Virus record (IMG/VR): IMGVR_UViG_3300030106_005205
Location: 1 to 64,000 of that record
From: a virus
Length of the DNA stretch: 64,000 nt
Direction: 5' to 3' (one strand)
In this document: positions 3,243 through 30,264 of the stretch, piece after piece
Layout of the letters: every line of letters begins with the position of its first letter
Numbering within the stretch: the first letter of the stretch is position 1
Made by a program: the position numbers and the translations under genes
Notes under the pieces: generated by a model
What the model was told of the DNA's origin: nothing
Seen by the model: only the letters and a program-made list of their open reading frames with translations
Database searches by the model: none

Positions 3243-3929
3243 GTGGCTAGAAGAAAAAAGACAACCACACAAAGTGAAAGGCCTCAGAGAAGGAAGTCTT
3301 TAAAGGCAAAAACCGAAAACCAACAGATTTATATAGATGAAATGATTGATGAGGATGTCACATTCTGCTCTGGCCCTGCAGGATCAGGTAAAACTAGCGT
3401 AGCAGTAGGACTGGCATGTGAGTATCTTATGTCAGAAAAAGTAAAAAAGATAATTATAACTAGGCCTGTTGTGGAATCTGGAAGAGGATTGGGACATTTG
3501 CCGGGAACCCTCATAGAAAAAATAAATCCTTATCTAGTTCCGATCATTGAAGAAATGAATATGTATCTGACACCTACTAGGGTAGATACTCTAAGAGATA
3601 ATGGAACTATAGAGCTCTGCCCCCTAGAGTACATGAGAGGAAGAAACTTCCACGAATGCTTTATGATTCTTGATGAAGCGCAGAATGCTACGTTTGAACA
3701 AATAAAAATGTTTATAACAAGGATAGGAAGAAATTCTAAAGCTGTCATAAATGGAGATCTTAAACAAACAGATCTAGGAAATGCTAGTGGAGGGCTTGAA
3801 AGATGCATGGACACTCTTGAGCTAGTTGAGGGTGTTGGAGTTTGCGAATTAGATTATTCTGATATTATTCGCAGTGGTATTGTTGCCAGAATTCTTAAAA
3901 AATTACATACCTTTGAAGGCTCTAATTAA
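3243..3929 (+). CDS. phoH: PhoH family ATPase
   Basis: GPAGSGKT Walker A, ITRPVVE, LGHLPG, YMRGRNF, ILDEAQN, GDLKQTD. Confidence 0.95.
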   Translation: MARRKKTTTQSERPQRRKSLKAKTENQQIYIDEMIDEDVTFCSGPAGSGKTSVAVGLACEYLMSEKVKKIIITRPVVESGRGLGHLPGTLIEKINPYLVPIIEEMNMYLTPTRVDTLRDNGTIELCPLEYMRGRNFHECFMILDEAQNATFEQIKMFITRIGRNSKAVINGDLKQTDLGNASGGLERCMDTLELVEGVGVCELDYSDIIRSGIVARILKKLHTFEGSN

Positions 3930-17431: not shown

Positions 17432-17878
17432 ATGGATGATATTATAGAAAAGAATATGGGACTCGTAGCTTCTGTAGTCAATTCTTTTAAGCCAAAAAAT
17501 CATGTAGAAAAAGAAGACTATATGCAGGCTGGTAGAATAGGATTATGGAAAGCTCTTAAAAAACACGATCCATCAAAAGCCGCACTTTCCACATATGCTT
17601 GGAATCCAATCAGATGGGAAATTATCAAAGAAATTAAATCAATAAAGGCAGACAGGTATTGCTCAATATCTGACATAAGAATACCAGAATACAAAATTAA
17701 AAGTGAATTTTGGGAAAACTATCCTAATAATCTTACAGAGGAAGAATGTGAGTTGATTGATCTAAGAAGAATGGGATATACTTTGGAAGAGATCTCGAAT
17801 ATAGCTGGAAGAGGTCGCTCGTATGTCAAAAGAAGAATTTATACAGCAATACAAAAAATAAGAGAATGTAATGACTAA
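17432..17878 (+). CDS. Minimal sigma-70 family RNA polymerase sigma factor (regions 2 and 4)
   Basis: NMGLVASVV...EDYMQAGRIGLWKALKKHDP...STYA; GYTLEEISNIAG HTH. Confidence 0.85.
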   Translation: MDDIIEKNMGLVASVVNSFKPKNHVEKEDYMQAGRIGLWKALKKHDPSKAALSTYAWNPIRWEIIKEIKSIKADRYCSISDIRIPEYKIKSEFWENYPNNLTEEECELIDLRRMGYTLEEISNIAGRGRSYVKRRIYTAIQKIRECND

Positions 17879-19487
17879 AAAAAGAGTACTACTAGTCTCA
17901 GAGTCACACCACCTTGCATCTGGTTTTGGAACATATTCTAAAGAAATTTTGACTCGTCTTTGGGACACTGGCAAATATGAACTTGCTGAGTTCGCTGGAT
18001 ATGGAGATCTTGATAAATGTAAGGATGTTCCTTGGAGATACTATAGCAATACTCCAACAACCGATCAAGAAAAAAATGTATTCAATTCCAATCCAAACAA
18101 CTCATTTGGACTCTGGAGGTTCAATCATGTAGTTCTGGATTTTAAGCCAGATATTGTATTGACATATAGAGATCCTTGGATGGACATGTGGATAAATGAA
18201 TCTCCGTTGAGAAAGTACTTTCATTGGTTATGGATGCCAACCGTTGACTCATACCCTCAAAAAAGAAAATGGCTAGATGTATTCGAGCAATGTGATGGTA
18301 TACTTGCTTACTCAGAATATGGAATAAGGTCACTAAAAAAACAAAGTGACTTCATTACTACTCTTGATTGTGCATCTCCGGGAATACATCCAGAGGTTTT
18401 TAAGCCGGTAAAAGACAAAAAAGCTCATAAGAAGTCTTTTGGAATCCCTGAAGATTCTATTGTAGTTGGCACTGTGATGAGAAACCAAAAGAGAAAACTA
18501 TTTATAGAGTTAATGAAGGCATTTAGAATATTTTTAGATAATGCCCCAAAAGATATCGCTGATAAAACATTTCTTTATCTACATACTAGCTATCCAGAAA
18601 AGGTTGGATGGGACATTGAGTCTGGGATTGTTGAAAATGGGTTATCTTCAAAAGTTTTCTGCACATATATATGCAAGAGCTGTGAACACTGGCATATATC
18701 TAAATATGCGGGAGCAATTGCGACATGTCCAAAATGTGCAAACAGAACATCTTTTATGCCAAGTGTTAGTAATGGGCTCAGCACAGAAGATCTAGTAAGC
18801 GTATACAACATATTGGATCTTTATGTTCAGTATGCTATATGCGAAGGTTTCGGAATGCCCCAAGTAGAGGCGGCTTCTTGTGGAGTTCCTATTGCATCAA
18901 CTGATTACAGTGCAATGGAGGATGTCGTAAGGCATACAGATGGATATCCAGTACCCGTAAAGGTATTTTTCAGAGAGATGGAAACTTGGGCAGAAAGAGC
19001 GTACCCAGATAATGACGCATTGGCAAAAATAATTCAGGAGTTTGCTATGCTGAATGATAGTGATAGGGGTGCTAAATCTGACGCAGCTAGAAAAGGTGCG
19101 ATTAAAAGATATAAGTGGGATGACTCTGCTAAGGTTTGGGAAAAATATATAGATGAGTATACTCAAAAACGCAGAGAGCACTCTTGGGATTCTCCTCCTA
19201 GGTATTTACAAAATACTGGAATGCCGAAAATTGAATCAAATTCAGATTTTGTTAAATGGTGCCTATCAGTAGCATTGCAAAGACCAGAGTTAGTCTACAG
19301 ATATGCATATACTAACTACTGTAAAAATCTAGACAATGGTTGCTATATGGATGGACACTTGGAACCTTTTAGCAGAGAAAAGATGCTTGAAACTATAAAT
19401 GCGAAGATAAATGAAAATAACTTTTTTGAATCTATTAGGGCTGGTAAAAGACAGCCAGAACAGATAAATTATGTAAATGGTAATTAA
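17871..19487 (+). CDS. GT-B (GT4-like) glycosyltransferase with zinc-ribbon insertion
   Basis: SGFG, PDIV, RNQKRK, EGFGMPQVEAASCGVP signature; CKSC...CPKC insert. Confidence 0.88.
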   Translation: MTKKRVLLVSESHHLASGFGTYSKEILTRLWDTGKYELAEFAGYGDLDKCKDVPWRYYSNTPTTDQEKNVFNSNPNNSFGLWRFNHVVLDFKPDIVLTYRDPWMDMWINESPLRKYFHWLWMPTVDSYPQKRKWLDVFEQCDGILAYSEYGIRSLKKQSDFITTLDCASPGIHPEVFKPVKDKKAHKKSFGIPEDSIVVGTVMRNQKRKLFIELMKAFRIFLDNAPKDIADKTFLYLHTSYPEKVGWDIESGIVENGLSSKVFCTYICKSCEHWHISKYAGAIATCPKCANRTSFMPSVSNGLSTEDLVSVYNILDLYVQYAICEGFGMPQVEAASCGVPIASTDYSAMEDVVRHTDGYPVPVKVFFREMETWAERAYPDNDALAKIIQEFAMLNDSDRGAKSDAARKGAIKRYKWDDSAKVWEKYIDEYTQKRREHSWDSPPRYLQNTGMPKIESNSDFVKWCLSVALQRPELVYRYAYTNYCKNLDNGCYMDGHLEPFSREKMLETINAKINENNFFESIRAGKRQPEQINYVNGN

Positions 19488-19489
19488 AA

Positions 19490-20479
19490 ATGATAAATTG
19501 TTTAACAGTATCTCAGTATAGAGACTTATCAGAAGAAGGGCAAAAAGCATTAGAGCTAATAACATCTCTAGAAAATGAAAAGAATATACGTAATAAGAAT
19601 GAATATGTTTCTTTCTCTGAAGATAAGAAGCAGATTAAATTAGAAGATAGTACTAGATTTGAAATTGATATATGTATACAACACATGTTAAATGAAAAAT
19701 TTGTCAGAACAGAGTTCAAAGATGTTGGTATATTTGAACCAACTACAAAAAATGAAATCGGATACAATAATTTTCTTGACTTTATGGATGCGATTATTGT
19801 AAGAAGTTCACATCAGAGGGATATTCTTCCAGAACATCTAAAGAATAAAACACAAGTTATAAGACCTGTTTACTCTTTTCCCTCTAAAAGAGATCGTACA
19901 AAAAGAATCATATCAACCTTTATCTTTTCTTGCCAGCTAACCGATAAGATAGATGATATCCTAACAGCGTACTTCAACTCATTTACTATAAATGATAATG
20001 TATGCCTAGCAGTATTGTCAAGTCCTGAGCAGTTAATAAAAAAAATAGATGAGGTAAAAGGTAAACTTGGCTTATATAAAGGACAAGAGTTTTATCCAGA
20101 GATCAAGATAGTAAATAATCTTGACACACTTTTAAGTATATCTCATTGCTGTATAGAGATTTCAGGAACTTATAACATAAAGAACTTCTGCGCCTCCTCG
20201 TTAAAGTATGGAAATCCAATAATAACGTTAAAGAACAATGCAGTGCTAGAATGGATAGGTGCTGAGTGTTACTACATTGTAGATTCTCATCAAGACTTTG
20301 TTAGGTCAAATCAGACTTGTGAGTTTGTTCATAAGCTCTCACTAGGCGAAAAAATGAGAAGTGTGGCGTATGACAGGAGAGGTTTTTTAGAAAAACAAAG
20401 GTCTATAATGGAGGGCTACTTTAAGTCATTTGATTATCTGAAAAAAGATTCTATAGGAGAAATTTTATGTTCTCTGTAA
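19490..20479 (+). CDS. Divergent glycosyltransferase-like protein
   Basis: MDAIIV, YFNSFTINDNVCL, YGNPII resemble a degenerate GT-B; cluster context. Confidence 0.45.
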   Translation: MINCLTVSQYRDLSEEGQKALELITSLENEKNIRNKNEYVSFSEDKKQIKLEDSTRFEIDICIQHMLNEKFVRTEFKDVGIFEPTTKNEIGYNNFLDFMDAIIVRSSHQRDILPEHLKNKTQVIRPVYSFPSKRDRTKRIISTFIFSCQLTDKIDDILTAYFNSFTINDNVCLAVLSSPEQLIKKIDEVKGKLGLYKGQEFYPEIKIVNNLDTLLSISHCCIEISGTYNIKNFCASSLKYGNPIITLKNNAVLEWIGAECYYIVDSHQDFVRSNQTCEFVHKLSLGEKMRSVAYDRRGFLEKQRSIMEGYFKSFDYLKKDSIGEILCSL

Positions 20480-21321
20480 TGAATTGTATAAAAAGGGCAG
20501 CTCCTCTTACTAAAGATAGGAATATTGAGATACTTGTTATACAACAGTCTCGCGAAAAATATCTTCTAGACATGTGTAAGATTCCTAATGTAACAGTATA
20601 CTCTTATTTTAATAATTTAAATCTTATCGATTCTATACCCGATAACTTGGTTGTCATAAACGACTTAGACAATGTTTTCTCCAAATCACTCGATTACATA
20701 GTATGTATTGGTAAAACAAATAGTGCGCATATATCAAATGTTCTAAGGGAAAGGTTTTCAAGCTCTGTCATTCTTGTAAATGATACTACAGACGAAACAT
20801 ATTGCAATAGGCCTTTTGGCACTAGTGTCACCAACAGAATACCTACAAACTATGATATAAAGGTTTCTATATATCCAAACATTTGCAAGGAGTCCATAAC
20901 AATTCCAAACATAATGAGTGATACAATTATCGCACCAAAAGACGAACAGTTCTGTTTATTCGACAAGCTTGAAAAGCCAGTCTTAACTAGATATCTAGGC
21001 GCACTGAAAGATATTAACTGTCTGACATTCTCTGAAGACAATCTGTTAAGAAGTAGGGTATTTATTGATACGGTAGTTGGTGTGACAGAACATCTGATTA
21101 AAGCAGTGCAAAGTAATTGCTTTATTATTTGCCCATATTCTGAAGAAGCACAAGATCTAATAGGAGAAAATGGATTGACATACAGAGGTTTTGAAGAGTT
21201 GGCAAAACACATACAAACAGTAAAAGATGAAGTAAACTTTAAAATGATTGACCCTAGCAAATATTGCATATCAGAAGATAAATTTGTTAGATCTTGGGAA
21301 AAAGTTTTGAGAGGACAATAG
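20467..21321 (+). CDS. Divergent glycosyltransferase-like protein
   Basis: C-terminal VFID...LIKAVQSNC...ENGL...FVRSWEKVL resembles a GT-B C-domain. Confidence 0.45.
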   Translation: MFSVMNCIKRAAPLTKDRNIEILVIQQSREKYLLDMCKIPNVTVYSYFNNLNLIDSIPDNLVVINDLDNVFSKSLDYIVCIGKTNSAHISNVLRERFSSSVILVNDTTDETYCNRPFGTSVTNRIPTNYDIKVSIYPNICKESITIPNIMSDTIIAPKDEQFCLFDKLEKPVLTRYLGALKDINCLTFSEDNLLRSRVFIDTVVGVTEHLIKAVQSNCFIICPYSEEAQDLIGENGLTYRGFEELAKHIQTVKDEVNFKMIDPSKYCISEDKFVRSWEKVLRGQ

Positions 21322-21741
21322 ATGAAATTACTAATATATTCAGACCAGCAACCACCAATAGTGCCGCTAGACAATAATAGTATTGAAGTAGTGCATAAAG
21401 ACGATATAAATATAGACGACATACCGAATTATCTCTATGACGAGATTGAGTGCTATAATTATCTTGAATACACAGAGGATGATGGACTAGACAAATTGAT
21501 TGCTAAAATGAGTTCGAAAGCTACGCTTAGATTAAAAGGTGTGGATATATTTCAAGCTTCTAAAAGTTTTACTAGTGGCAATATATCAACTTCACAGATG
21601 TCAGAGGCAATAGCTAAAGGCAGGAGAAGATGCTTTAGTGTACACGAATTAGCAGAGTCAATATCTTCAAAAAATCTAAATGTTGTGTTCGCTGGAATAT
21701 CTGGAATAAACTATATGATCGAGGCAAAGAAAAATGATTAA
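21322..21741 (+). CDS. Hypothetical protein (degenerate methyltransferase-like)
   Basis: YDEIECYNYLEY...MIEAKK pattern; weak. Confidence 0.35.
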   Translation: MKLLIYSDQQPPIVPLDNNSIEVVHKDDINIDDIPNYLYDEIECYNYLEYTEDDGLDKLIAKMSSKATLRLKGVDIFQASKSFTSGNISTSQMSEAIAKGRRRCFSVHELAESISSKNLNVVFAGISGINYMIEAKKND

Positions 21742-22546
21742 TCAAGTACACACTAGCTGCAGAGATTGTGCTTTCGCTGAGTATACTAAAGGAACGCAAG
21801 TTGGCTGCGAATTTAATAGGATTGAATCGTATAAAAACTCAGGTGCAGAAGTCTTAGAAGCCTATGATGAAAATGGAAAAGAATTCTATGTTATTAATGA
21901 TAGGATTTGTATTTATCATAGAAGTAAAGACTGGGCAAAAAAGTATCCTACTTCTGATTTAAAAAGTGTTGTTAAATCACAATGCAAGATACCATTTCAT
22001 GCAATTATTATTCATAAAAAAGGACAGACTATACAAGAACTTGAATCTACGATATCTAGCCTTAGTGACCAATATAATCCTCCAACAGTAGTCTCTGTTA
22101 TTAACAGGAATATTGGAGATTCTTTGTACAAGACTAACATGATGATTGAGTCTGTATTTAAAAAATATGAAGATTCATTCAAATGGAGGGTACAAAGCAT
22201 TGTCGATCAAGAAAAACCAGAACGAGAGTGTATTGATTTAGCTATTGATGGGACATACTTTAAGTATAACTATCCATACTATATCACATTTTTTAGTGGC
22301 TTTTCTGTCCCAAAAGATTTTACAAAAGAGCTTGACAATGCAATAATGTTAGACAACAAGCAGGTCATTGTTGCTTATGGAGTTGATAAAACAGAAAACT
22401 GTATGTTGGTTAATAAACTTATGCATAGAAAACATACTGGAAATGCATTTTTAATTAATGTTGAGACTAAAATTCTAGAGCTGGAAGAAGACTCAGAAAG
22501 CTATTTCCATAATATAGAAGACCTATGTCCATGCCTTGTAGGATAG
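21734..22546 (+). CDS. Protein with N-terminal Cys cluster and GT-A-like C-terminal part
   Basis: CRDC...C...C, then LESTISSLSDQYNPP resembling a GT2 N-terminal motif. Confidence 0.4.
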   Translation: MINQVHTSCRDCAFAEYTKGTQVGCEFNRIESYKNSGAEVLEAYDENGKEFYVINDRICIYHRSKDWAKKYPTSDLKSVVKSQCKIPFHAIIIHKKGQTIQELESTISSLSDQYNPPTVVSVINRNIGDSLYKTNMMIESVFKKYEDSFKWRVQSIVDQEKPERECIDLAIDGTYFKYNYPYYITFFSGFSVPKDFTKELDNAIMLDNKQVIVAYGVDKTENCMLVNKLMHRKHTGNAFLINVETKILELEEDSESYFHNIEDLCPCLVG

Positions 22547-22914
22547 TCATAGCATCTCAAAATTTATTTAGAGAAATGCAAACATACAATGATTGTTATG
22601 TGTGGCTAAACCTCTATAATAGACCCAATTTTATAGAAAAAATATTCACTCAAGAAAGCTTTGATATATTTGGAATACTAGTAAAAGGGATGACATTTGC
22701 TAATGAAAATTCAGCAGATGTTATAGTCAAGCTATTTGAAGCTGTAGATGATTTAGCATGTATTATGACTGAAGAAATAGTAAATAACGAATACTGTGTT
22801 TTCATAAATACAAGACTAACCGGCGCTGTGATAAACACTAAAGAAATTATTCAAAATCAACAATGGAAGACTGTCTGTATTGGCGGATTGGTTAAACCGA
22901 ATGGCAAAACATAA
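22525..22914 (+). CDS. Hypothetical protein
   Basis: ORF filling the operon; overlaps neighbours. Confidence 0.45.
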   Translation: MSMPCRIVIASQNLFREMQTYNDCYVWLNLYNRPNFIEKIFTQESFDIFGILVKGMTFANENSADVIVKLFEAVDDLACIMTEEIVNNEYCVFINTRLTGAVINTKEIIQNQQWKTVCIGGLVKPNGKT

Positions 22915-23602
22915 AATTAAAAAATCACATGAAGATGAAATCACGGTTATAATACCTGCAGCAGGAAGAGGTAGGAGGATGAAGTCTTATGGGCCAAAAC
23001 CACTCATAAATATTGGGAGTTGCACCATACTCCAAAGACAGATAACTATGGTAAAATCAATTTTTCCAAATGCAAGATTTGTCATAGTGGCTGGATTTGA
23101 AGCTGATAAACTAATGTCTAGTACTCCAAAGGATTTTATAAATCTTGAGAATGAACTCTACGAACAGACCAATGTATGTAGAAGTGTTTCAATTGCGCTC
23201 AATGCGATTGATACAGAGAGGGTTCTTATAATTATGGGAGACCTCATCTTCAATGACAAAGCATTGTCCACGCTTGACTTTCATAAGTCTTGTATATCTG
23301 CTAATATAGATATAAATAGAGATCGTGAGGTTGGATGTATAGTATCCGCAGATGACACCTTATCAAATATGATGTATGATTTAGACTTGAAGTGGAACCA
23401 GATTATATATCTTCAAAGTAAAGAGTTAGATATCTTCAAAACAATCTGCAAGAAAAGAAAAAATAACAAGCTGTTTTTATTTGAAATAATAAACAAAGTT
23501 ATTGATAAGGGTGGTAAAATTAAGTGCATAGTAAATGATGAAGTAAAAGTAATAGATGTTGACACATCTAAAGACCTATTAAGAGCAGGTAGTATAATAT
23601 GA
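22901..23602 (+). CDS. Sugar/choline-phosphate nucleotidyltransferase (LicC/NTP transferase family)
   Basis: IIPAAGRGRRM...PKPL, EN..Y..TN, MGDLIF, IDVDT..DL. Confidence 0.85.
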   Translation: MAKHKIKKSHEDEITVIIPAAGRGRRMKSYGPKPLINIGSCTILQRQITMVKSIFPNARFVIVAGFEADKLMSSTPKDFINLENELYEQTNVCRSVSIALNAIDTERVLIIMGDLIFNDKALSTLDFHKSCISANIDINRDREVGCIVSADDTLSNMMYDLDLKWNQIIYLQSKELDIFKTICKKRKNNKLFLFEIINKVIDKGGKIKCIVNDEVKVIDVDTSKDLLRAGSII

Positions 23603-24369
23603 AGATAGCAATAGATATATCAAATCCATTTTCAAAGAAACTATTTGATAAACTGGTTAGTGTCAAAACAATACATAACCTAATTCCTTTTTATTGCGAG
23701 AGAACCCCTTTGATGAAGGTGTTCAAGGAGTCAAGAGCTGAAGCTTTTATATTGAATAGTAGATGTAATTACATTGATGCTTCTTATATAAAATCCTGTC
23801 AGGATGTAACAATAATACATTTAGGTAATGATTCTGAAGATATAGTAGTAGCCGATCTAGTGACAGGAGAGTCTTCTAGATACAATTGTTTAGGGTTTGA
23901 TAAGTTTATTGATCTAAACACATTCAAGCCATCACAGTTCGACAAAAAATATAAATCTGACTATGTGTGCATAACAAGTAATTTAAAAGATAACAACGAT
24001 CAAGTTCCTATTGAGATAATTAAAGAGCTTGCTAAAATAAAAACAAAGTTTATCGGCAGTACTAAAATAGATGTTCCAAACTATTTGGGACGAGTTGATG
24101 AAGAAGACATGATTAAATTTTGTGGCTCATCTAAATACTGTATAGATATAACAGGTAATGATTACTTAACATATCTAGCGTCAGGATCAGAAAATATTTT
24201 GAGTGCTCAGTATCACTTCAATTCTGTAGAAACTTTAATGGATGCGATTTCTTATGAAGATATATTTGAGTCAGAAGATCATAAAAAATGGATTAGGGAA
24301 AAGTACGAAGACATCGCAAGAAACAGTTACTCGTCTTTAGTACAGAACTTATTAGAATTTATAGGTTAG
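23599..24369 (+). CDS. Hypothetical protein (possibly a degenerate GT-B)
   Basis: 256-aa ORF; PNYLGRV motif; cluster context. Confidence 0.4.
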   Translation: MKIAIDISNPFSKKLFDKLVSVKTIHNLIPFYCERTPLMKVFKESRAEAFILNSRCNYIDASYIKSCQDVTIIHLGNDSEDIVVADLVTGESSRYNCLGFDKFIDLNTFKPSQFDKKYKSDYVCITSNLKDNNDQVPIEIIKELAKIKTKFIGSTKIDVPNYLGRVDEEDMIKFCGSSKYCIDITGNDYLTYLASGSENILSAQYHFNSVETLMDAISYEDIFESEDHKKWIREKYEDIARNSYSSLVQNLLEFIG

Positions 24370-24372
24370 CAA

Positions 24373-24783
24373 ATGATTGGTGTTATATCAGAAAAAATAA
24401 ACTTCTTACATAATTATAACTTAGATGGTAGTAATACATGTGTATTCTTTGATGGGTATATACCTCCTGTACTAATGCCTGACGTATGCCAGTTTTCGGT
24501 AAGTGGCATATTTGATTTTAGAGGCATAGCTGCTTCTACATGCATTGAATCAACAAAGACACTGTTGAATTCTAGCACTCCGTCCAAGAAGTTTTATCTT
24601 GTAGAAAATGCGGAATGGACTAATGCTGAAATATCATATAAGGACCTTATGCGTATTTTCTTTAATAAAGATTTAAAAATAGTTGCTTTGAATGAAGAAA
24701 TACATGAAATCATATCAGACTTTTTTAGAGAGCCCGACCTTCTCATGGAAAGTTTTGATTTAAGACTATTGGAGAATGTATAA
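24373..24783 (+). CDS. Hypothetical protein
   Basis: ORF coupled by TAATG to next gene. Confidence 0.5.
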   Translation: MIGVISEKINFLHNYNLDGSNTCVFFDGYIPPVLMPDVCQFSVSGIFDFRGIAASTCIESTKTLLNSSTPSKKFYLVENAEWTNAEISYKDLMRIFFNKDLKIVALNEEIHEIISDFFREPDLLMESFDLRLLENV

Positions 24784-25568
24784 TGGAATATTCCAAACTT
24801 ACTGAAAAGGAAAAGAAAAAGTTCATAAAAGATAATTATATTAAAAAGAAGCTTAGCTTTGCAGAAATTGCAAAAATTGCAGGAACATATTCTAATAAGA
24901 TTAGAAGAGATGCAAATAAGTTTGGTATTACTATAAGAAATCGTAGTGAAGCTGCAAAGATCGCGCTCAATCAAGGACGATCAGAACACCCTACTAAAGG
25001 CAAAGGTCATGATAAGTCTACTAGGCTTAAAATTAGTGAGGCTCAGGGTAAGGTATGGGATTCTTTAGATGAAGAAGAAAGACAAAAAAGGTCTGAGATA
25101 GGAAAGCAAAGCTGGAATAAAAAGAGTGAATCTGAAAAGCGTGAAGTTATAGAAAAGGGAGGTCAAGCTATCAGGGAGGCTTCTAGAATAGGTTCTAAGC
25201 TAGAAAGATATATATTGCAAGAGTTGATAAAGCTAAATTATAATGTTCAATTCCATAGAGAGCATGTGCTGAGAAATCATAGGCTAGAAATCGACTTGTA
25301 TGTAACAGATTTACAAACAGCTATTGAAGTTGATGGCCCGTCTCATTTTGAACCTGTATGGGGCGAAGAAAATTTAATCAGAAATCAGCGCTCAGATAAG
25401 CAAAAAACGGGTTTAATTATATCACAGGGAATGGTTCTGATAAGAATCAAGCAGGATAAGCGTATTTCACAACGATACTTTAGGAATATATTAAATAAAC
25501 TCGTTGAGGAACTTGAGAAGATTAAAACAAATTTTCCAGAACAGGATAAGAGGTATATAGAGATATGA
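24783..25568 (+). CDS. HTH + DUF559/Vsr-like endonuclease (possible free-standing homing endonuclease)
   Basis: LSFAEIAKIAG HTH; NUMOD3-like KGKGH...TRLKISEA; SKLE...EIDLY...AIEVDGPSH...DKQK. Confidence 0.7.
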   Translation: MEYSKLTEKEKKKFIKDNYIKKKLSFAEIAKIAGTYSNKIRRDANKFGITIRNRSEAAKIALNQGRSEHPTKGKGHDKSTRLKISEAQGKVWDSLDEEERQKRSEIGKQSWNKKSESEKREVIEKGGQAIREASRIGSKLERYILQELIKLNYNVQFHREHVLRNHRLEIDLYVTDLQTAIEVDGPSHFEPVWGEENLIRNQRSDKQKTGLIISQGMVLIRIKQDKRISQRYFRNILNKLVEELEKIKTNFPEQDKRYIEI

Positions 25569-26311
25569 GTAAAGCAAAAGCAAAGAAAACAGATTTTGAA
25601 GACATTGTAGAAGTAGTTGAGGATACTTTGGAAACAAAGGAAGAGGATATTGTTATTCGGCCACAAGACCCTGAGTGGAGTGAATATGTGCTTGATCAAA
25701 TGCATGACAGCGAACTAAAAGATGGTAATCCTACAGTTGATGGTTTACGTCGTGTTACAGAGAGAATATATGGTGAGATTATTCAATCTTCAAGTGAAAT
25801 TTTTAATTACAATACTGATCGTGGCATTTGTACTGTAAAGCATACTTTAGCGATCCAAAAATACGCTACGGATACTATAATAACTGTAGATGGTTGTGTT
25901 GATGTTAAGTATCAAAACATTCCACACCCTTTCAACCAACATCTTGTTTCGACTGCAGACACGCGCGCCGAAGGGAAAGCTCTTCGTAGAGCATTAAAGC
26001 TTCGAGTAGTGACTGCCGAAGAAGTACAGCAGACATCAGAAGATGATGTTCTTGCCGCTGAAGAAAATATCACAGATCAACAGATCTTGGCTATTAATCA
26101 GATGTGCAAGAGACTGGACGTTAATTTGGTTGAGGGTGTAAAGAGCGTTTGTCCTAACGCAGACTCAATCAGAGATTCAAGCAACCTCCAAGGCCGTATG
26201 CTGTTAAGTACTCTATCCGAGTATCAACGTAGTCCAGCATCCATTCCTGAAAACCTTGTTGGTTATAACCCACAGTGGAGAGACACTTTTGATAGCGGAG
26301 GTAAAAAATAA
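25565..26311 (+). CDS. Putative single-strand annealing protein (Rad52/Sak-like)
   Basis: DGLRRV...TADTRAEGKALRRAL; C-terminal ITDQQ module. Confidence 0.5.
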   Translation: MSKAKAKKTDFEDIVEVVEDTLETKEEDIVIRPQDPEWSEYVLDQMHDSELKDGNPTVDGLRRVTERIYGEIIQSSSEIFNYNTDRGICTVKHTLAIQKYATDTIITVDGCVDVKYQNIPHPFNQHLVSTADTRAEGKALRRALKLRVVTAEEVQQTSEDDVLAAEENITDQQILAINQMCKRLDVNLVEGVKSVCPNADSIRDSSNLQGRMLLSTLSEYQRSPASIPENLVGYNPQWRDTFDSGGKK

Positions 26312-26697
26312 TGAAAGCTAATGTGAGAGCAACAGCAGATTTATCATTTCAAGTTGATGCGGAAACCGAAGAAGAACTTTTTAAGCAAATTGCAAGAGTT
26401 CAGGAGGTCTTCCAACATCAGTCATGTGGAAAATGCAATTCTACTGATGTAAAATTTGTGTGCCGTCATGACAGCTCAGAGAACGACTGGCTTGAGGTAG
26501 TCTGTAAAGAATGCCGAGCAAAAGTAATCTTTGGGCGCACCAAGAAAGGTGGTCAAATCTATCCAAAGATCAGATGGGATCAACTTTCACAAAAGCAACA
26601 AGAGCAAAGGATCAATGAAAAGTCCTATGCTGACAAAAATAGAGGCTTCCTGCCTCACAGAGGGTGGTTTATTTATAAGCCACAGGGCGCCAGCTAA
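26311..26697 (+). CDS. Zinc-finger hypothetical protein
   Basis: CGKC...CKEC; GGAGG RBS. Confidence 0.55.
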   Translation: MKANVRATADLSFQVDAETEEELFKQIARVQEVFQHQSCGKCNSTDVKFVCRHDSSENDWLEVVCKECRAKVIFGRTKKGGQIYPKIRWDQLSQKQQEQRINEKSYADKNRGFLPHRGWFIYKPQGAS

Positions 26698-26724
26698 GTT
26701 GCTGAATACAGTTTTTAAAACTGG

Positions 26725-26750
26725 ACGGGGTTTTATACCCCGTTTTTTAT
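26725..26750 (+). terminator. Intrinsic terminator at the convergence of the two gene blocks
   Basis: ACGGGGT-tttat-ACCCCGT followed by a T tract; a second hairpin CAGTTTTTAAAACTG lies just upstream. Confidence 0.8.
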
Positions 26751-27506
26751 TTAACGCCTTGTAAAATTCCTACACACGTTTTTGAACCAAAGTTTTTCTA
26801 GACTCTTTGTATCTACCTTACTTGGTTTTGTGATAGCAATAGCGTATCCAGATCGTTCGTTATTACTAAAGTACTCAAGAAGGAACTTCTTCATCTTATC
26901 TTGCTCTTTATACTCAGGTAGATGTATTAAGTTTTCCTCTAGGAACTCATCTACTGCTGGTTTGACACCATTGAATACTTCTTCATAATAGTAATCATCT
27001 ATTACAATCACTCCTCCTTCTTTAAGTCTATTCCAAACAAGTGGTAGTATATGTTTGGTGGGCTCATATATATCTAAATCTATGTAACAAAAAGATATTT
27101 TATTAGGTAAGTCGCCTTGTTCAATATCTCTGACATCTACTTTTAATATCTCGTCTGGAATAGGTGTATCAAATTTATTAAATGTGTTTAGAAAATTGTC
27201 TAGACTTGAAGCAAGGTCGCCATCCTCACAGTGTCCGTGAGCATTTGAATCTTTATCAGAAGTCCCTAATATACCTTCAAAGCTATCAAATACCCAAAAC
27301 TCTTTATCAGGACAAAAGAGATCTATAAAAGTTTTTATAATAACAGATGTCTGACCATAGGAACATCCTACCTCTATTATATCACCACCCTTATCTTCAC
27401 ATAAAAAAGAAGTATTCCACAGGTGTTTTAGTATAAGAGATTTTCTTTCTATCGTGGTCATATTAGGAAATGCACATAACTGTTCTAGAAATTGTCTTAA
27501 GTCCAT
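26751..27506 (-). CDS. TylF/MycF/NovP-family O-methyltransferase
   Basis: GDIIEVG, VFDSFEG, ISFCYIDLDIYEPT, GGVIVIDDY, GVKPAVDEF. Confidence 0.88.
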   Translation of the reverse strand: MDLRQFLEQLCAFPNMTTIERKSLILKHLWNTSFLCEDKGGDIIEVGCSYGQTSVIIKTFIDLFCPDKEFWVFDSFEGILGTSDKDSNAHGHCEDGDLASSLDNFLNTFNKFDTPIPDEILKVDVRDIEQGDLPNKISFCYIDLDIYEPTKHILPLVWNRLKEGGVIVIDDYYYEEVFNGVKPAVDEFLEENLIHLPEYKEQDKMKKFLLEYFSNNERSGYAIAITKPSKVDTKSLEKLWFKNVCRNFTRR

Positions 27507-27515
27507 TGTTCTTCT

Positions 27516-28523
27516 TTATATATGTAAGTTTGTTGCCCTAATTACTTCTACGGAGTTAACTCTTGTGTCTAGAATAATGTCTAGATTCTCTTGCACTGTA
27601 GTCAAAAATTCATGATACATTGGATGATCTTTATTTGATATATCTTTTGACTCAAAAAGTTTTCTGTCTGTTCTTCCCCAAAATCCCATCATTGTCAAAT
27701 TAACAAATGAAGCCCCATATATATTAAAGGCTTGCTCTATAAATAATGGAATCTCTCGAAAGTTATCTTGTTGTACAACCATATTTACATGTATTTCTTT
27801 TCCTAATTTGCTTACAAACTGCATAGCATCTGTTAATTCGGAAAATGTTGACCCAAGTCTAGTCTTGTTATAGGTTTCCTCTGTGGCCGCGTCAATACTA
27901 ACCTTAATATTTTTTATATTGCTATGTATATTTTTTATTGAATCCCAGTAACGAGGAATCAGTATTCCATTAGTAAATATTTCTATACTCAAATCATTGT
28001 ATAATGAAGGATCTAGCTGCTGAAGTATCTTTCTCCAAGCCGGGCTAGCAAAAGGATCTCCAGAGCCTATACACTCTATCCAAGTAATACTATCTTTAAA
28101 TGTGTCAAGTACTAAATTAGTTTGCTCAAAGACAGCTTGCTGGTTTTTATCTATTATAGGCCGAATCCTACATGTCCAGCAATGCAGGTTACAAGTTTGG
28201 TCATTAGCAAAAGTTATATATCTTGGCCCTTCCTGCATCACAGGAGTCATATAGCTATCTTTGTATTGAACGTGCTTTGGAGCCGATGATAGAACAGGAC
28301 AATTGAGACACAATCTAGAATCAGAAGAAAGCCATGATGACCGCAAGTTCTGGAATATCTCATGATTCCACATATCCCACAGATTTCTGAAGTCTCCCTT
28401 TACTATCATATCGTTATGGTTACTAAACCAAGAGCCACAACATGTCATATAGTGTGGATAAGGATAAAAAGTTGCTTTATTTAGAACGTGCAGAGTGTGA
28501 AAGGGATGATTGCAAAATCTCAT
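27516..28523 (-). CDS. Radical SAM protein with N-terminal SPASM/Twitch-like domain
   Basis: CNLHCWTC (CxxxCxxC), GDPF, TNG, VSIDA; N-terminal CxxPF...CC...W...CxxCP. Confidence 0.85.
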   Translation of the reverse strand: MRFCNHPFHTLHVLNKATFYPYPHYMTCCGSWFSNHNDMIVKGDFRNLWDMWNHEIFQNLRSSWLSSDSRLCLNCPVLSSAPKHVQYKDSYMTPVMQEGPRYITFANDQTCNLHCWTCRIRPIIDKNQQAVFEQTNLVLDTFKDSITWIECIGSGDPFASPAWRKILQQLDPSLYNDLSIEIFTNGILIPRYWDSIKNIHSNIKNIKVSIDAATEETYNKTRLGSTFSELTDAMQFVSKLGKEIHVNMVVQQDNFREIPLFIEQAFNIYGASFVNLTMMGFWGRTDRKLFESKDISNKDHPMYHEFLTTVQENLDIILDTRVNSVEVIRATNLHI

Positions 28524-28795
28524 TCCTCTTTCTCTGTTGTTTTCTTGAAGAAAGGAAACAGGCGATTTAAGAATCTTTTTCTTTCTTTACACCCACATCC
28601 GCGAATTCCAAAGACTCTTTCCATCCTTTCTGGAGTAACGCCCATCTTGCTTAATACAGATTCTATTGCTGTCCCTAAGCCCTCTTCATTTTCTGGGAAT
28701 ATAGAATGTTCGTCCTTAACACCCTCTTGTGCTAAGTGCTCCCTAAACTTATCTGCTAGCTGATCATCAGACAGATTGTCATAATTTTCACTCAT
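28520..28795 (-). CDS. Small Cys-motif protein (domain B)
   Basis: EGLGTAIE...GCGCKERKRFLN; paralogous to the C-terminus of 28788-29249. Confidence 0.6.
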   Translation of the reverse strand: MSENYDNLSDDQLADKFREHLAQEGVKDEHSIFPENEEGLGTAIESVLSKMGVTPERMERVFGIRGCGCKERKRFLNRLFPFFKKTTEKEE

Positions 28796-29249
28796 CTTGT
28801 TTTCCTTTGTTTGTATAAGAAAATATTTTGTTAAACCAAGTTTTTCTTTCGCTGCATCCACATCCGGGGCCGCCTAATATCTTTTCTATTTTATCTTGAT
28901 TTATACCAAACTTATTTAAAACTTTTTCTATCGTATCACCAAGACCCTCTGAATGTTTATTAATATCAATACCAGAATCTTTCATTTCTTTAATTGCCAT
29001 ATCAGCAGTCTTATCCATCTCTGTTTTTTTTCTCATCTTCCTATCATAGTTTTTTCTGACTTCGTTGTTATGAACACCTTTCATGGTAGCGGTTTGTAAG
29101 AATAGAGTTCTATACCTAACGTCTGTTTTACATAGGTGATGAAGCCTTTGTGTCATAGATTTTTGTAATAGAGGACAATATCCTGCAGCTTCACAATCGC
29201 ATTCGAAACCCTCTTTTGACATTTTTTCATAGTCATATTCATCTTGCAT
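28788..29249 (-). CDS. Cys-motif protein (domain A + domain B)
   Basis: CDC..YC..L..MT..L..CK and EGLGDTIE...GCGCSERKTWFN. Confidence 0.6.
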   Translation of the reverse strand: MQDEYDYEKMSKEGFECDCEAAGYCPLLQKSMTQRLHHLCKTDVRYRTLFLQTATMKGVHNNEVRKNYDRKMRKKTEMDKTADMAIKEMKDSGIDINKHSEGLGDTIEKVLNKFGINQDKIEKILGGPGCGCSERKTWFNKIFSYTNKGKQDE

Positions 29250-30264
29250 AATAAATTTCCCCTGAGTTTGGACAAACAACAGTCTTTCCTTGTGTGTATA
29301 CTGATATTTTTTTCGCTAATAAATCATCACTCTCTATAAATATTTTAGCTCTTGACTTAAGAAAAATGTCGCCTTTATATTTGGAAACATTTTTTATGAA
29401 CGAGGCATCTCTAAAAGATTTATCAAAAGGATACATATATAGTTGGTTATATCTTATATTATTGTTTTTTAACCAAGTCTCTGTTATGGCTCTGTATTTT
29501 TCTAGTCTTGCAGTAACAATAGACATGCACATATTTGATCTAGGTATTCTAAAATCAATAGGCTCAACAGTACTTATAAAATCTACGTAAAGTTTTTCGT
29601 CTTCGCATATATCATCAGGAACATCCGGACAGAATATACCATCTAAATCAAACATAGCTGTTTCTGTAAAGTAACTATTAAAAAAATGCCATTCTAGATA
29701 GTGAGGACGTGCAAGTTCAAGACCATAGAAATCTACAAACTTCTTAGACTCAGGAGTACAATACAAACAAGCATATTTATTATTAGGATATTTCTTTCTG
29801 ACCCTTCTAATCTCTTTTCCTGTGTAGCACGTGTCATCAATGAATAAAATTTTACCCTGAACTTCTGAGTGTGATTTCATCCTTTTTCCACCAGACGATG
29901 TTGAAGAGGAACATTTAATCAAGGTATTTCCGCAACTGGAAAGTGTATACAAAGGTTTATTTAAAAGAACTGCGCATATAGATGCAACTACCATTCCAGA
30001 TCTAGGCACCCCAACAATACATTTTATATTCGCGTTTGCTATCTTAGGGATAAGATTGTTTATGCAGTCTATTGGGATATCAGAGACTTTTTTGAACTGA
30101 TGGCTAGTTACTTTATCTTCGGAAAAGATAACGGGCTCCTTATACAGCTTAGATCTAGAAGATGGATGACTCTTACAAAACTTAACCAAACTAGGAGTCA
30201 TCATCCTATTAAGATTATTGCAATAAGTAGAAGATATTGGGCAATCACATTTATCAAGAGACAT
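29239..30264 (-). CDS. Phosphoribosyltransferase-HAD phosphatase fusion with N-terminal Cys domain A
   Basis: VGVPRSG and ILFIDDTCYTG (type I PRT); FDLDG, VTAR, K, FIESD (HAD). Confidence 0.8.
   Translation of the reverse strand: MSLDKCDCPISSTYCNNLNRMMTPSLVKFCKSHPSSRSKLYKEPVIFSEDKVTSHQFKKVSDIPIDCINNLIPKIANANIKCIVGVPRSGMVVASICAVLLNKPLYTLSSCGNTLIKCSSSTSSGGKRMKSHSEVQGKILFIDDTCYTGKEIRRVRKKYPNNKYACLYCTPESKKFVDFYGLELARPHYLEWHFFNSYFTETAMFDLDGIFCPDVPDDICEDEKLYVDFISTVEPIDFRIPRSNMCMSIVTARLEKYRAITETWLKNNNIRYNQLYMYPFDKSFRDASFIKNVSKYKGDIFLKSRAKIFIESDDLLAKKISVYTQGKTVVCPNSGEIYYAR

Follow-up and report, generated by a model that had tools for sequence, protein, structure and literature searches.

What is made by nine tightly packed genes, several of them resembling glycosyltransferases, that a marine phage carries directly behind its DNA polymerase, and which molecule receives the product? 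The question is raised by positions 17871-24783 of a 64,000-nucleotide (nt) stretch, here called the window, which is the initial 64 kb of a linear, 74,832-bp virus record in IMG/VR (IMGVR_UViG_3300030106_005205) with a CheckV completeness of ~49%. An earlier note, written from the letters of the window, had proposed that the cluster glycosylates virion proteins. We found that the nine genes very probably constitute a phage-autonomous, fully cytoplasmic glycosylation module. A virion protein is our best guess for the acceptor, which we hold tentatively and at somewhat less than an even chance.

A gene cluster of the replication operon

The nine tightly coupled genes described previously were found again as nine plus-strand open reading frames (ORF1 to ORF9) at exactly the positions given, separated by gaps of at most 3 nt or overlapping. 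ORF1 is followed after 2 nt by ORF2, which overlaps ORF3 by 13 nt; ORF3 and ORF4 abut, ORF4 and ORF5 overlap by 8 nt and ORF5 and ORF6 by 22 nt, and the overlap of ORF6 and ORF7 amounts to 35 nt if ORF7 starts at the TTG at 22880 or to 14 nt if it starts at the ATG at 22901. A 4-nt overlap (ORF7/ORF8), a 3-nt gap (ORF8/ORF9) and a 1-nt overlap of ORF9 with the next gene complete the series. All nine have syntenic, length-matched orthologues in the closest relative (L001) and in ~20 further viral contigs, and are therefore real genes. The plus strand from 76 to 26697 holds a replication module with PhoH, a RecA/UvsX-like protein, DnaB, primase, a deoxynucleoside monophosphate (dNMP) kinase, exonucleases, a sigma factor and DnaE, the last in two halves interrupted by an exonuclease gene; the minus strand from 26751 on is structural. 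The cluster lies directly downstream of the split DnaE and the sigma factor. Since ORF1 overlaps the sigma gene by 8 nt, and since no convincing terminator was found from ORF1 on until a strong stem-loop at 26723-26745 (9-bp stem, five GC pairs, T run), in the 53-nt gap between the convergent replication/glycosylation and tail operons, the cluster is a member of the replication operon and not of the tail operon. This location had been overlooked in the earlier note, as had the core status of the genes in a large phage clade and the ~49% completeness of the record.

The conservation of the cluster was examined in two independent samples, one of 61 IMG/VR loci retrieved with an alignment of ORF5 homologues and one of 42 loci with at least 6 kb downstream, for which the C-terminal half of DnaE was the seed. 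In the ORF5-seeded sample, the GT4 glycosyltransferase gene (ORF1) was present in all 61 loci, the nucleotidyltransferase gene (ORF7) in 56 and the DnaE halves in 56-60. The DnaE-seeded sample contained ORF2 and ORF4 in 35 of the 42 loci each and ORF5 in 31. Because the GT4 and the nucleotidyltransferase both follow DnaE in 42/42 of these loci, they belong to the core of the clade and hold a fixed place behind the DNA polymerase genes in all relatives studied. IMG/VR holds at least 560 DnaE-related stretches, and no published description of this DnaE-linked glycosylation module was found in the literature.

Around this pair, the content of the locus changes from lineage to lineage. The minimal architecture consists of the GT4, ORF5, the nucleotidyltransferase and a ~120-aa (amino acid) protein, and the nine-gene architecture is that of the subclade of the analysed phage. 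Expanded architectures have a canonical GT2 in the slot of ORF6 (L025 and others; Glycos_transf_2, 8.5e-23), up to three NAD epimerase/dehydratases and a UDP-GlcNAc 2-epimerase. As such sugar enzymes occupy the slot in other lineages, the locus builds a variable glycan; it is a modular pathway for glycans in which the pair is constant and the surrounding genes are exchangeable. When compared with L001, DnaE is 96% and the downstream nuclease 93% identical, and the cluster genes are 25-76% identical (ORF3 37.5%, ORF8 25%). Against other relatives (L002-L006), identities of 22-62% were found for ORF2-9 and of 34-46% for the tail-end proteins Cys260 and P472; the accessory cluster genes diverge as fast as distal tail proteins.

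Near-identical copies of 17871-24783, sharing 57-100% of the sampled 31-mers, occur in marine or seawater metagenome contigs of at least 14 studies from 2014-2025, and the analysed phage has a wide marine distribution. Nucleotide and protein searches of a cultured-phage collection gave no near relative and no match at all to ORF5, and the nearest GT4 relatives there, at 24% identity, are those of Synechococcus phage S-CBS4 and Tetrasphaera phage TJE1. A rearrangement was observed in one lineage (L025, L027, L028 and related loci; e.g. L025:7795-8529), where a PhoH gene lies within the glycosylation cluster, between the orthologues of ORF2 and ORF3; the PhoH gene of the analysed phage is 14 kb upstream of the cluster (3243-3929).

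The proteins of the cluster and their catalytic residues

A clear GT4 had been noted before, and ORF1 (17871-19487, 538 aa) bears this out. It matches Pfam Glycos_transf_1 (PF00534) at 2.6e-12, with 47 bits against a cut-off of 26.4, as well as PHROG 2170 (1.6e-28), and its EX7E motif (E325-GFGMPQV-E333), located in the C-terminal Rossmann domain, aligns to that of BshA, with both glutamates invariant in 47/47 family members. ORF1 is thus a GT4 of the GT-B fold and the retaining type, with its catalytic motif intact. Partial NCBIfam matches of the family include MshA, BshA, GtfA and glycogen synthase, all far under cut-off. Two additions to the enzyme were found, an inserted Cys4 ribbon (C268, C271, C286, C289) that is conserved in the family, and a helical C-terminal extension of ~100 aa, which by its sequence could be a protein-interaction or a DNA-related module. 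Residues 430-538 (window 19158-19484) match weakly 8tzm_A, a 115-aa chain deposited as 'Type I site-specific deoxyribonuclease' (E 2.5e-4 with a whole-protein profile, 0.003 with a domain-only profile). In two separate lineages, the GT4 orthologue contains an intein of ~405 aa with Hint and LAGLIDADG parts (L024:3208-6045 and L055:7113-9977), inserted between I323 and C324 in ORF1 numbering, one residue ahead of the first catalytic glutamate (YAI/CEGFGMPQVE). An intein in the active site of a glycosyltransferase is unusual and suggests that the enzyme is indispensable.

The second member of the pair, ORF7, extends over 22880-23602 (240 aa from the TTG, 233 aa from the ATG) and had been called LicC-like. 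This is supported by matches to NTP_transf_3 (PF12804; 6e-12, 46.5 bits against a cut-off of 27), to IspD (PF01128; 1e-7, 32.4 bits against 27) and to GlmU-type N-domains (1e-11). The G-x-G-x-R nucleotide-binding loop is intact (PAAGRGRRM in the translation), and ORF7 has both the fold and the nucleotide-binding motif of a sugar-1-phosphate nucleotidyltransferase. No NCBIfam equivalog cut-off was reached, all matches being far under, so that neither the substrate nor the nucleotide is assigned.

Three further proteins are related to GT-B enzymes. ORF2 (19490-20479, 329 aa) is a full-length GT-B paralogue of ORF1, aligning with the GT4 family over 326 columns (hhalign, 93%), and its PDB profile matches are WbaZ-1 (2.4e-6) and B736L (1.8e-4). 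ORF3 (20467-21321, 284 aa) is a GT4-type protein that clusters with ORF1 by BLAST linkage, and its family profile finds BshA-type GT4 structures in the PDB (4xso at 3e-7, 2jjm and 3mbo at ~1e-6). ORF8 (23599-24369, 256 aa) has no Pfam match, and its AlphaFold model (pLDDT 91.6) is a compact GT-B fold for which Foldseek returns BshA (5e-6), PimA, Gtf3 and B736L, with a TMq of up to 0.60. Its sole PDB profile match at E<0.001, the designed TIM-barrel 7mcd (6.6e-5), was judged spurious.

None of the three carries the acidic residues of EX7E in this phage. ORF2 has an E-x7-D pair in all distant lineages, and both residues are gone in every member of the subclade of this phage, here replaced by Y and S. 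The second glutamate of ORF3 is kept in 18/31 members and is erratic within the subclade, with a lysine in this phage, and the family consensus of ORF8 has no EX7E motif. The alignments indicate that the degeneracy of ORF2 and ORF3 is a lineage-specific loss, as the acidic residues are retained in distant lineages.

ORF5 (21734-22546, 270 aa) combines an N-terminal Cys4 domain (residues 1-82) with a GT-A fold (residues 83-270). The Cys4 domain (HTxCxxC...C...C) is beta-rich and the most conserved part of the protein. In the AlphaFold model (pLDDT 92.9), the GT-A part finds TarP (3.6e-5), TarS and SpsA by Foldseek, and a VIA comparison of residues 80-270 gives Z scores of 15.2 with BcsA and 14.8 with mannosylglycerate synthase; nucleotidyltransferases, which share the superfold, reach 13-14, so the fold alone is not discriminating. 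Only generic GT2 matches were obtained from a viral structure library with Foldseek. The slot of the DXD motif reads S-G-F here and is variable across all 45 family members in every lineage. ORF5 has no Pfam match, including to GT2, and no PHROG match, and a sequence-profile search of the PDB gave nothing significant. Its family has no relative in 185,579 species genomes, which therefore offer neither a clue to the host nor a cellular homologue. Searching 1.84 billion representatives with a profile of the Cys4 domain yielded 742 representative clusters at E<=1e-10. Of the best 150 matches, most are 240-315 aa long (a few are shorter) with the domain N-terminal, and because of this uniform architecture there is no Rosetta-stone clue from other fusion partners. 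ORF5 is a member of an undescribed large protein family without a Pfam or PHROGs model.

The remaining proteins are small. ORF4 (21322-21741, 139 aa) is possibly class I methyltransferase-like, a lead that comes from its named ESM Atlas neighbours shown, Methyltransf_11/23 with scores of 0.88-0.90 (small viral class I methyltransferases); its 26 family members have no Pfam match, and the PDB profile search gave no significant match. ORF6 (22525-22914, 129 aa), which has orthologues in 12 close loci, has no Pfam, PHROG or PADLOC match. For ORF9 (24373-24783, 136 aa), a 28-member alignment gave no PDB match and a Pfam scan of all members was empty; hhalign links it weakly (24%) to the ~120-aa protein that the minimal lineages have in this position. 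With the same method, no relationship was found among ORF4, ORF6 and ORF9, or between ORF6 and the GT2 that replaces it elsewhere. The description of several ORFs as degenerate GT-B- or GT-A-like proteins consequently holds for ORF2, ORF3 and ORF8 (GT-B) and for ORF5 (GT-A fold), and not for ORF4, ORF6 and ORF9, for which no glycosyltransferase likeness was established.

Hence, the cluster very probably encodes soluble proteins of sugar activation and sugar transfer, several of them catalytically degenerate in this lineage, among which only ORF1 and ORF7 look like conventional active enzymes in this phage. The degenerate proteins might form a multi-subunit complex, as the earlier note suggested. 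Alternatively, and this touches the complex alone, ORF2, ORF3, ORF6 and perhaps ORF8 and ORF9 could be decaying remnants of a formerly longer pathway, with little or no function, leaving only ORF1, ORF5 and ORF7 to matter. The loss of the acidic residues of ORF2 throughout the subclade when all distant lineages keep them, the erratic glutamate of ORF3, the fast divergence (25-55% identity where DnaE has 96%) and the minimal lineages without these genes would fit such decay. However, in ~20 divergent subclade contigs all of these genes are open, of constant length, in fixed order and tightly coupled for translation, which is not expected of neutral decay, and the ORF8 model folds with high confidence; we consider the remnant explanation doubtful.

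The acceptor of the sugar

We propose that ORF7 would produce a nucleoside diphosphate sugar for which the supply of the host would be inadequate in amount or kind, and that ORF1 would pass the sugar to an acceptor made in the infected cell. ORF5 may be no classical GT2 and serve instead as a metal-binding adaptor or a specificity subunit. ORF2, ORF3 and ORF8 would derive from chain-extending GT-B enzymes, with acidic residues still intact in distant lineages, and in this marine subclade they would have lost these residues and been retained as non-catalytic partners or altered enzymes. Enzymes encoded beside the tail genes may tailor the same glycan late in infection, and the acceptor would most likely be a virion protein, giving progeny particles with a lineage-specific glycan.

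No membrane-span-like segment was found in ORF1-9 or their plus-strand neighbours (maximal 19-aa hydropathy <=1.29), and a flippase, a polymerase or a polyprenyl transferase was not seen in any of the scanned ORFs, which places the acceptor inside the cell. Modification of the host surface polysaccharide, of the seroconversion type, was judged unlikely and rejected, as the Pfam scans gave no family of the required membrane and export parts (flippase, polymerase, GtrA/B/C, polyprenyl-phosphate transferase) and the genes are core and not moron-like.

The putative tailoring enzymes lie on the minus strand at 26751-30264, where a second group of sugar-tailoring genes closing the tail operon had been noticed; we find there a TylF-type O-methyltransferase (6e-16), a radical SAM protein (1e-9), two small Cys proteins and a fusion of a phosphoribosyltransferase (PRTase) with a HAD/PNK-like part. 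These genes are coupled to the last tail genes by junctions of 6-9 nt or overlaps. A virion protein as acceptor is supported by this coupling, by the intracellular acceptor and the lineage-variable glycan, by the GT4 of S-CBS4 in a head module and by accessory genes as divergent as distal tail proteins. The absence of the known routes to glycosylated DNA, the strong avoidance of restriction sites and the charge of the cluster proteins, eight of nine being net acidic or neutral, point the same way.

Several observations weigh against a virion acceptor. The core module sits in the replication operon, coupled to the sigma factor and DnaE and presumably expressed with the replication genes, and only the variable genes at 26751-30264 are coupled to the tail operon. 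The latter occur in few relatives (TylF in 4/61 loci, the radical SAM gene in 2/61, the PRTase gene in 5/61), and are thus tied only loosely to the core. That the module is universally conserved, and that two lineages have an intein in ORF1 at its catalytic site, would be more usual for genes of DNA metabolism than for accessory ones decorating the virion, and the Zn-ribbon-type modules of ORF1 and ORF5 could, from their sequence, bind nucleic acid. The conserved trio of the GT4 with its Cys4 ribbon, the Cys4/GT-A protein and the nucleotidyltransferase might instead carry out a replication-linked glycosylation by undescribed chemistry, which we regard as very improbable; the sugar could be placed on DNA without a hydroxymethyl- or hydroxy-pyrimidine precursor, e.g. 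at specific sites only, or on a replication or packaging protein essential to the clade.

DNA as the acceptor deserves separate weighing; phage DNA glycosylation is known from the alpha- and beta-glucosyltransferases of T4. In this case, ORF1, with ORF5, would put the ORF7-derived sugar on phage DNA during or after replication and the accessory transferases would extend it, giving protection from host nucleases, in parallel to the T-even, RB69/DLP3 and 5mYOX-linked pathways. The position right after DnaE, with a dNMP kinase upstream, would fit such a role, and the hypervariable accessory genes, the Cys4 ribbons, the catalytic-site intein, the weak match of the ORF1 C-terminus to a chain named as a type I restriction enzyme and the conserved Vsr-type nuclease adjoining the cluster agree with it. 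The composition is also like that of published DNA-glycan clusters, such as those for the poly-arabinosyl-5-hydroxycytosine of RB69 and DLP3, in having BshA/MshA-like GT-Bs, a LicC/MurU-like nucleotidyltransferase and a HAD phosphatase (PMC13326640), and TarP-like GT-A folds occur in the clusters that combine a C5-methyltransferase (C5-MT), 5mYOX and a glycosyltransferase (10.1101/2023.12.21.572611). A dNMP kinase close by, the location in DNA metabolism and the rapid diversification are further shared traits.

Unlike in those clusters, however, no enzyme known to generate the acceptor was found here. In known sugar hypermodification of DNA, the acceptor is made by a thymidylate-synthase homologue (PMC13326640) or by a C5-MT/5mYOX pair (10.1101/2023.12.21.572611). 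The earlier statement that the window lacks genes for base hypermodification stands, and is weak by itself because the record is only ~49% complete; we therefore widened it to the clade. A thymidylate-synthase homologue (PF00303) was found in 2/49 related records, both of one lineage, in none of the three rated 100% complete and not in the phage's own record. The sole type encountered (L062/L066, in the records of L026 and L018) scores 306 bits with PF00303 and looks like an ordinary ThyA and not a hydroxymethylase. Tet_JBP (PF12851) had no match in five records, a result that is uninformative alone, as no positive control genome gave a match either. The reported restriction-site avoidance was confirmed and is pronounced: not one CCWGG is present in the whole record, window (1-64000) included, where ~72 would be expected, and twelve hexamer palindromes (ACCGGT, CCCGGG, CGATCG, CTCGAG, GACGTC, GCATGC, GGATCC, GGTACC, GTCGAC and three more) are likewise missing, with 50 expected in total. 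This is not expected of shielded DNA, and the DNA is presumably exposed to ordinary restriction. Moreover, the GT-A domain of ORF5 lacks the R...DDD...EDY/F motifs of DNA-acting phage GT-A enzymes, and the GT-like proteins lack a basic charge. No known route to glycosylated DNA is encoded, which argues against shielding by known chemistry and not against an unknown chemistry. Taken together, we consider DNA an improbable acceptor.

Another intracellular acceptor, which could be a non-structural phage protein, a host protein modified for takeover or anti-defence, a small molecule such as those used by MshA, BshA and sucrose-phosphate synthase, or the cytoplasmic face of a lipid-linked envelope precursor of the host, is possible and in our judgement unlikely. 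The relatives of the GT4, as the partial NCBIfam matches of ORF1 illustrate, use very diverse acceptors; a presumed early or middle expression with the replication genes would fit host takeover; and in the minimal lineages, the GT4, ORF5, the nucleotidyltransferase and their small companion would attach just one sugar. The solubility of the proteins of the cluster agrees with this as well. On the other hand, the epimerases, extra glycosyltransferases and O-methyl or ribofuranosyl tailoring of the lineage-specific expansions suggest a displayed glycan that matters for recognition and not a metabolite or a single regulatory sugar; none of ORF1-9 matched a defence system in PADLOC, and membrane and export parts are missing.

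The virion-protein acceptor can further be compared with systems in which a virus glycosylates its own products. The virion-glycosylation genes of mycobacteriophages are presumably accessory and few, linked to the structural module and without a phage-encoded nucleotidyltransferase. Freeman et al., cited in PMC12619734, are said to have described them in 2023 for phages of the Che8, Corndog and Myrna type. As in those phages, phage glycosyltransferases would work in the cytoplasm without export machinery, the acceptor there being a phage-made product; unlike there, the GT4/nucleotidyltransferase pair is universal in its clade, stands in the replication operon together with pseudo-glycosyltransferase paralogues and is a candidate for virion glycosylation. 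The cluster also recalls GtfA-GtfB of the accessory Sec system, in which an active GT4 that glycosylates serine and threonine of proteins pairs with a GT-B paralogue without catalytic residues. The likeness lies in the active GT4 beside such paralogues, and structures of Gtf1, Gtf3 and Gap1 are among the weak PDB matches of the GT-B proteins of the cluster; in contrast to GtfA-GtfB, there is no detectable specific sequence relationship and no serine-rich repeat substrate was identified. In giant viruses, glycosylation is autonomous and its acceptor, capsid or fibrils, is proven. Examples are the chlorovirus capsid glycans and the Mimivirus fibril clusters, the subjects of PMC9614988 and PMC7826918. 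Virus-encoded sugar activation, several soluble glycosyltransferases and sugar-methylating enzymes are shared with them, as would be a virus-specific glycan independent of the host machinery, and the chlorovirus GT4 B736L (3oy2) is among the PDB matches of ORF1, ORF2 and ORF8. Giant viruses differ in having eukaryotic hosts and genes that are scattered or in dedicated islands, whereas a compact module inside the replication operon of a tailed phage is seen here.

The two cultured phages with the nearest GT4 relatives offer another arrangement. In S-CBS4, the GT4 gene lies between the portal and head-protease genes, with a second glycosyltransferase and a methyltransferase; in TJE1, it is accompanied by a nucleotidyltransferase, a sugar epimerase and a methyltransferase. 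Both clusters, whose functions are putative, are in or beside the head/packaging module, are not linked to DnaE and have neither the ORF5 family nor the Cys4 ribbon. By analogy, the module would work like the glycosylation of giant viruses and mycobacteriophages, and its composition resembles that of phage DNA-glycan clusters, whose defining acceptor-generating enzyme is missing from 47 of the 49 related records.

Neighbouring genes and significance

Three plus-strand genes separate the cluster from the terminator. The first (24783-25568, 261 aa) directly follows the cluster in 33/42 loci and is the nuclease gene with 93% identity in L001; its product combines an N-terminal part resembling an HTH with a nuclease domain of the Vsr/DUF559 type (PHROG 559, 1.6e-12), with a weak PADLOC match to a methyl-directed type II restriction enzyme (E 0.0011). 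Because of its fixed position, it is not a mobile homing endonuclease, and taken with the total absence of CCWGG, its sequence suggests that it might be a phage nuclease against Dcm-methylated host DNA. The replication operon ends with two genes without family matches, for an acidic 248-aa protein (25565-26311) and a 128-aa Zn-ribbon protein (26311-26697), which are kept after the nuclease gene in 42-46 of the 61 loci and are 80-92% identical in close relatives.

It is established that giant viruses, a few mycobacteriophages and DNA-modifying phages encode glycosylation of their own. In the present case, an enzyme of sugar activation and a glycosyltransferase belong to the core genome of a very large clade of uncultured environmental phages, where they have a fixed place behind the polymerase. 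Retained glycosyltransferase paralogues that have lost their catalytic residues in particular lineages also illustrate cleanly, in nature, how pseudo-enzymes evolve within a viral pathway. If the glycan were on DNA or on a replication protein, it would represent new chemistry; if it is carried by the particles, abundant marine viruses would be affected in their adsorption, grazing, aggregation and host range.

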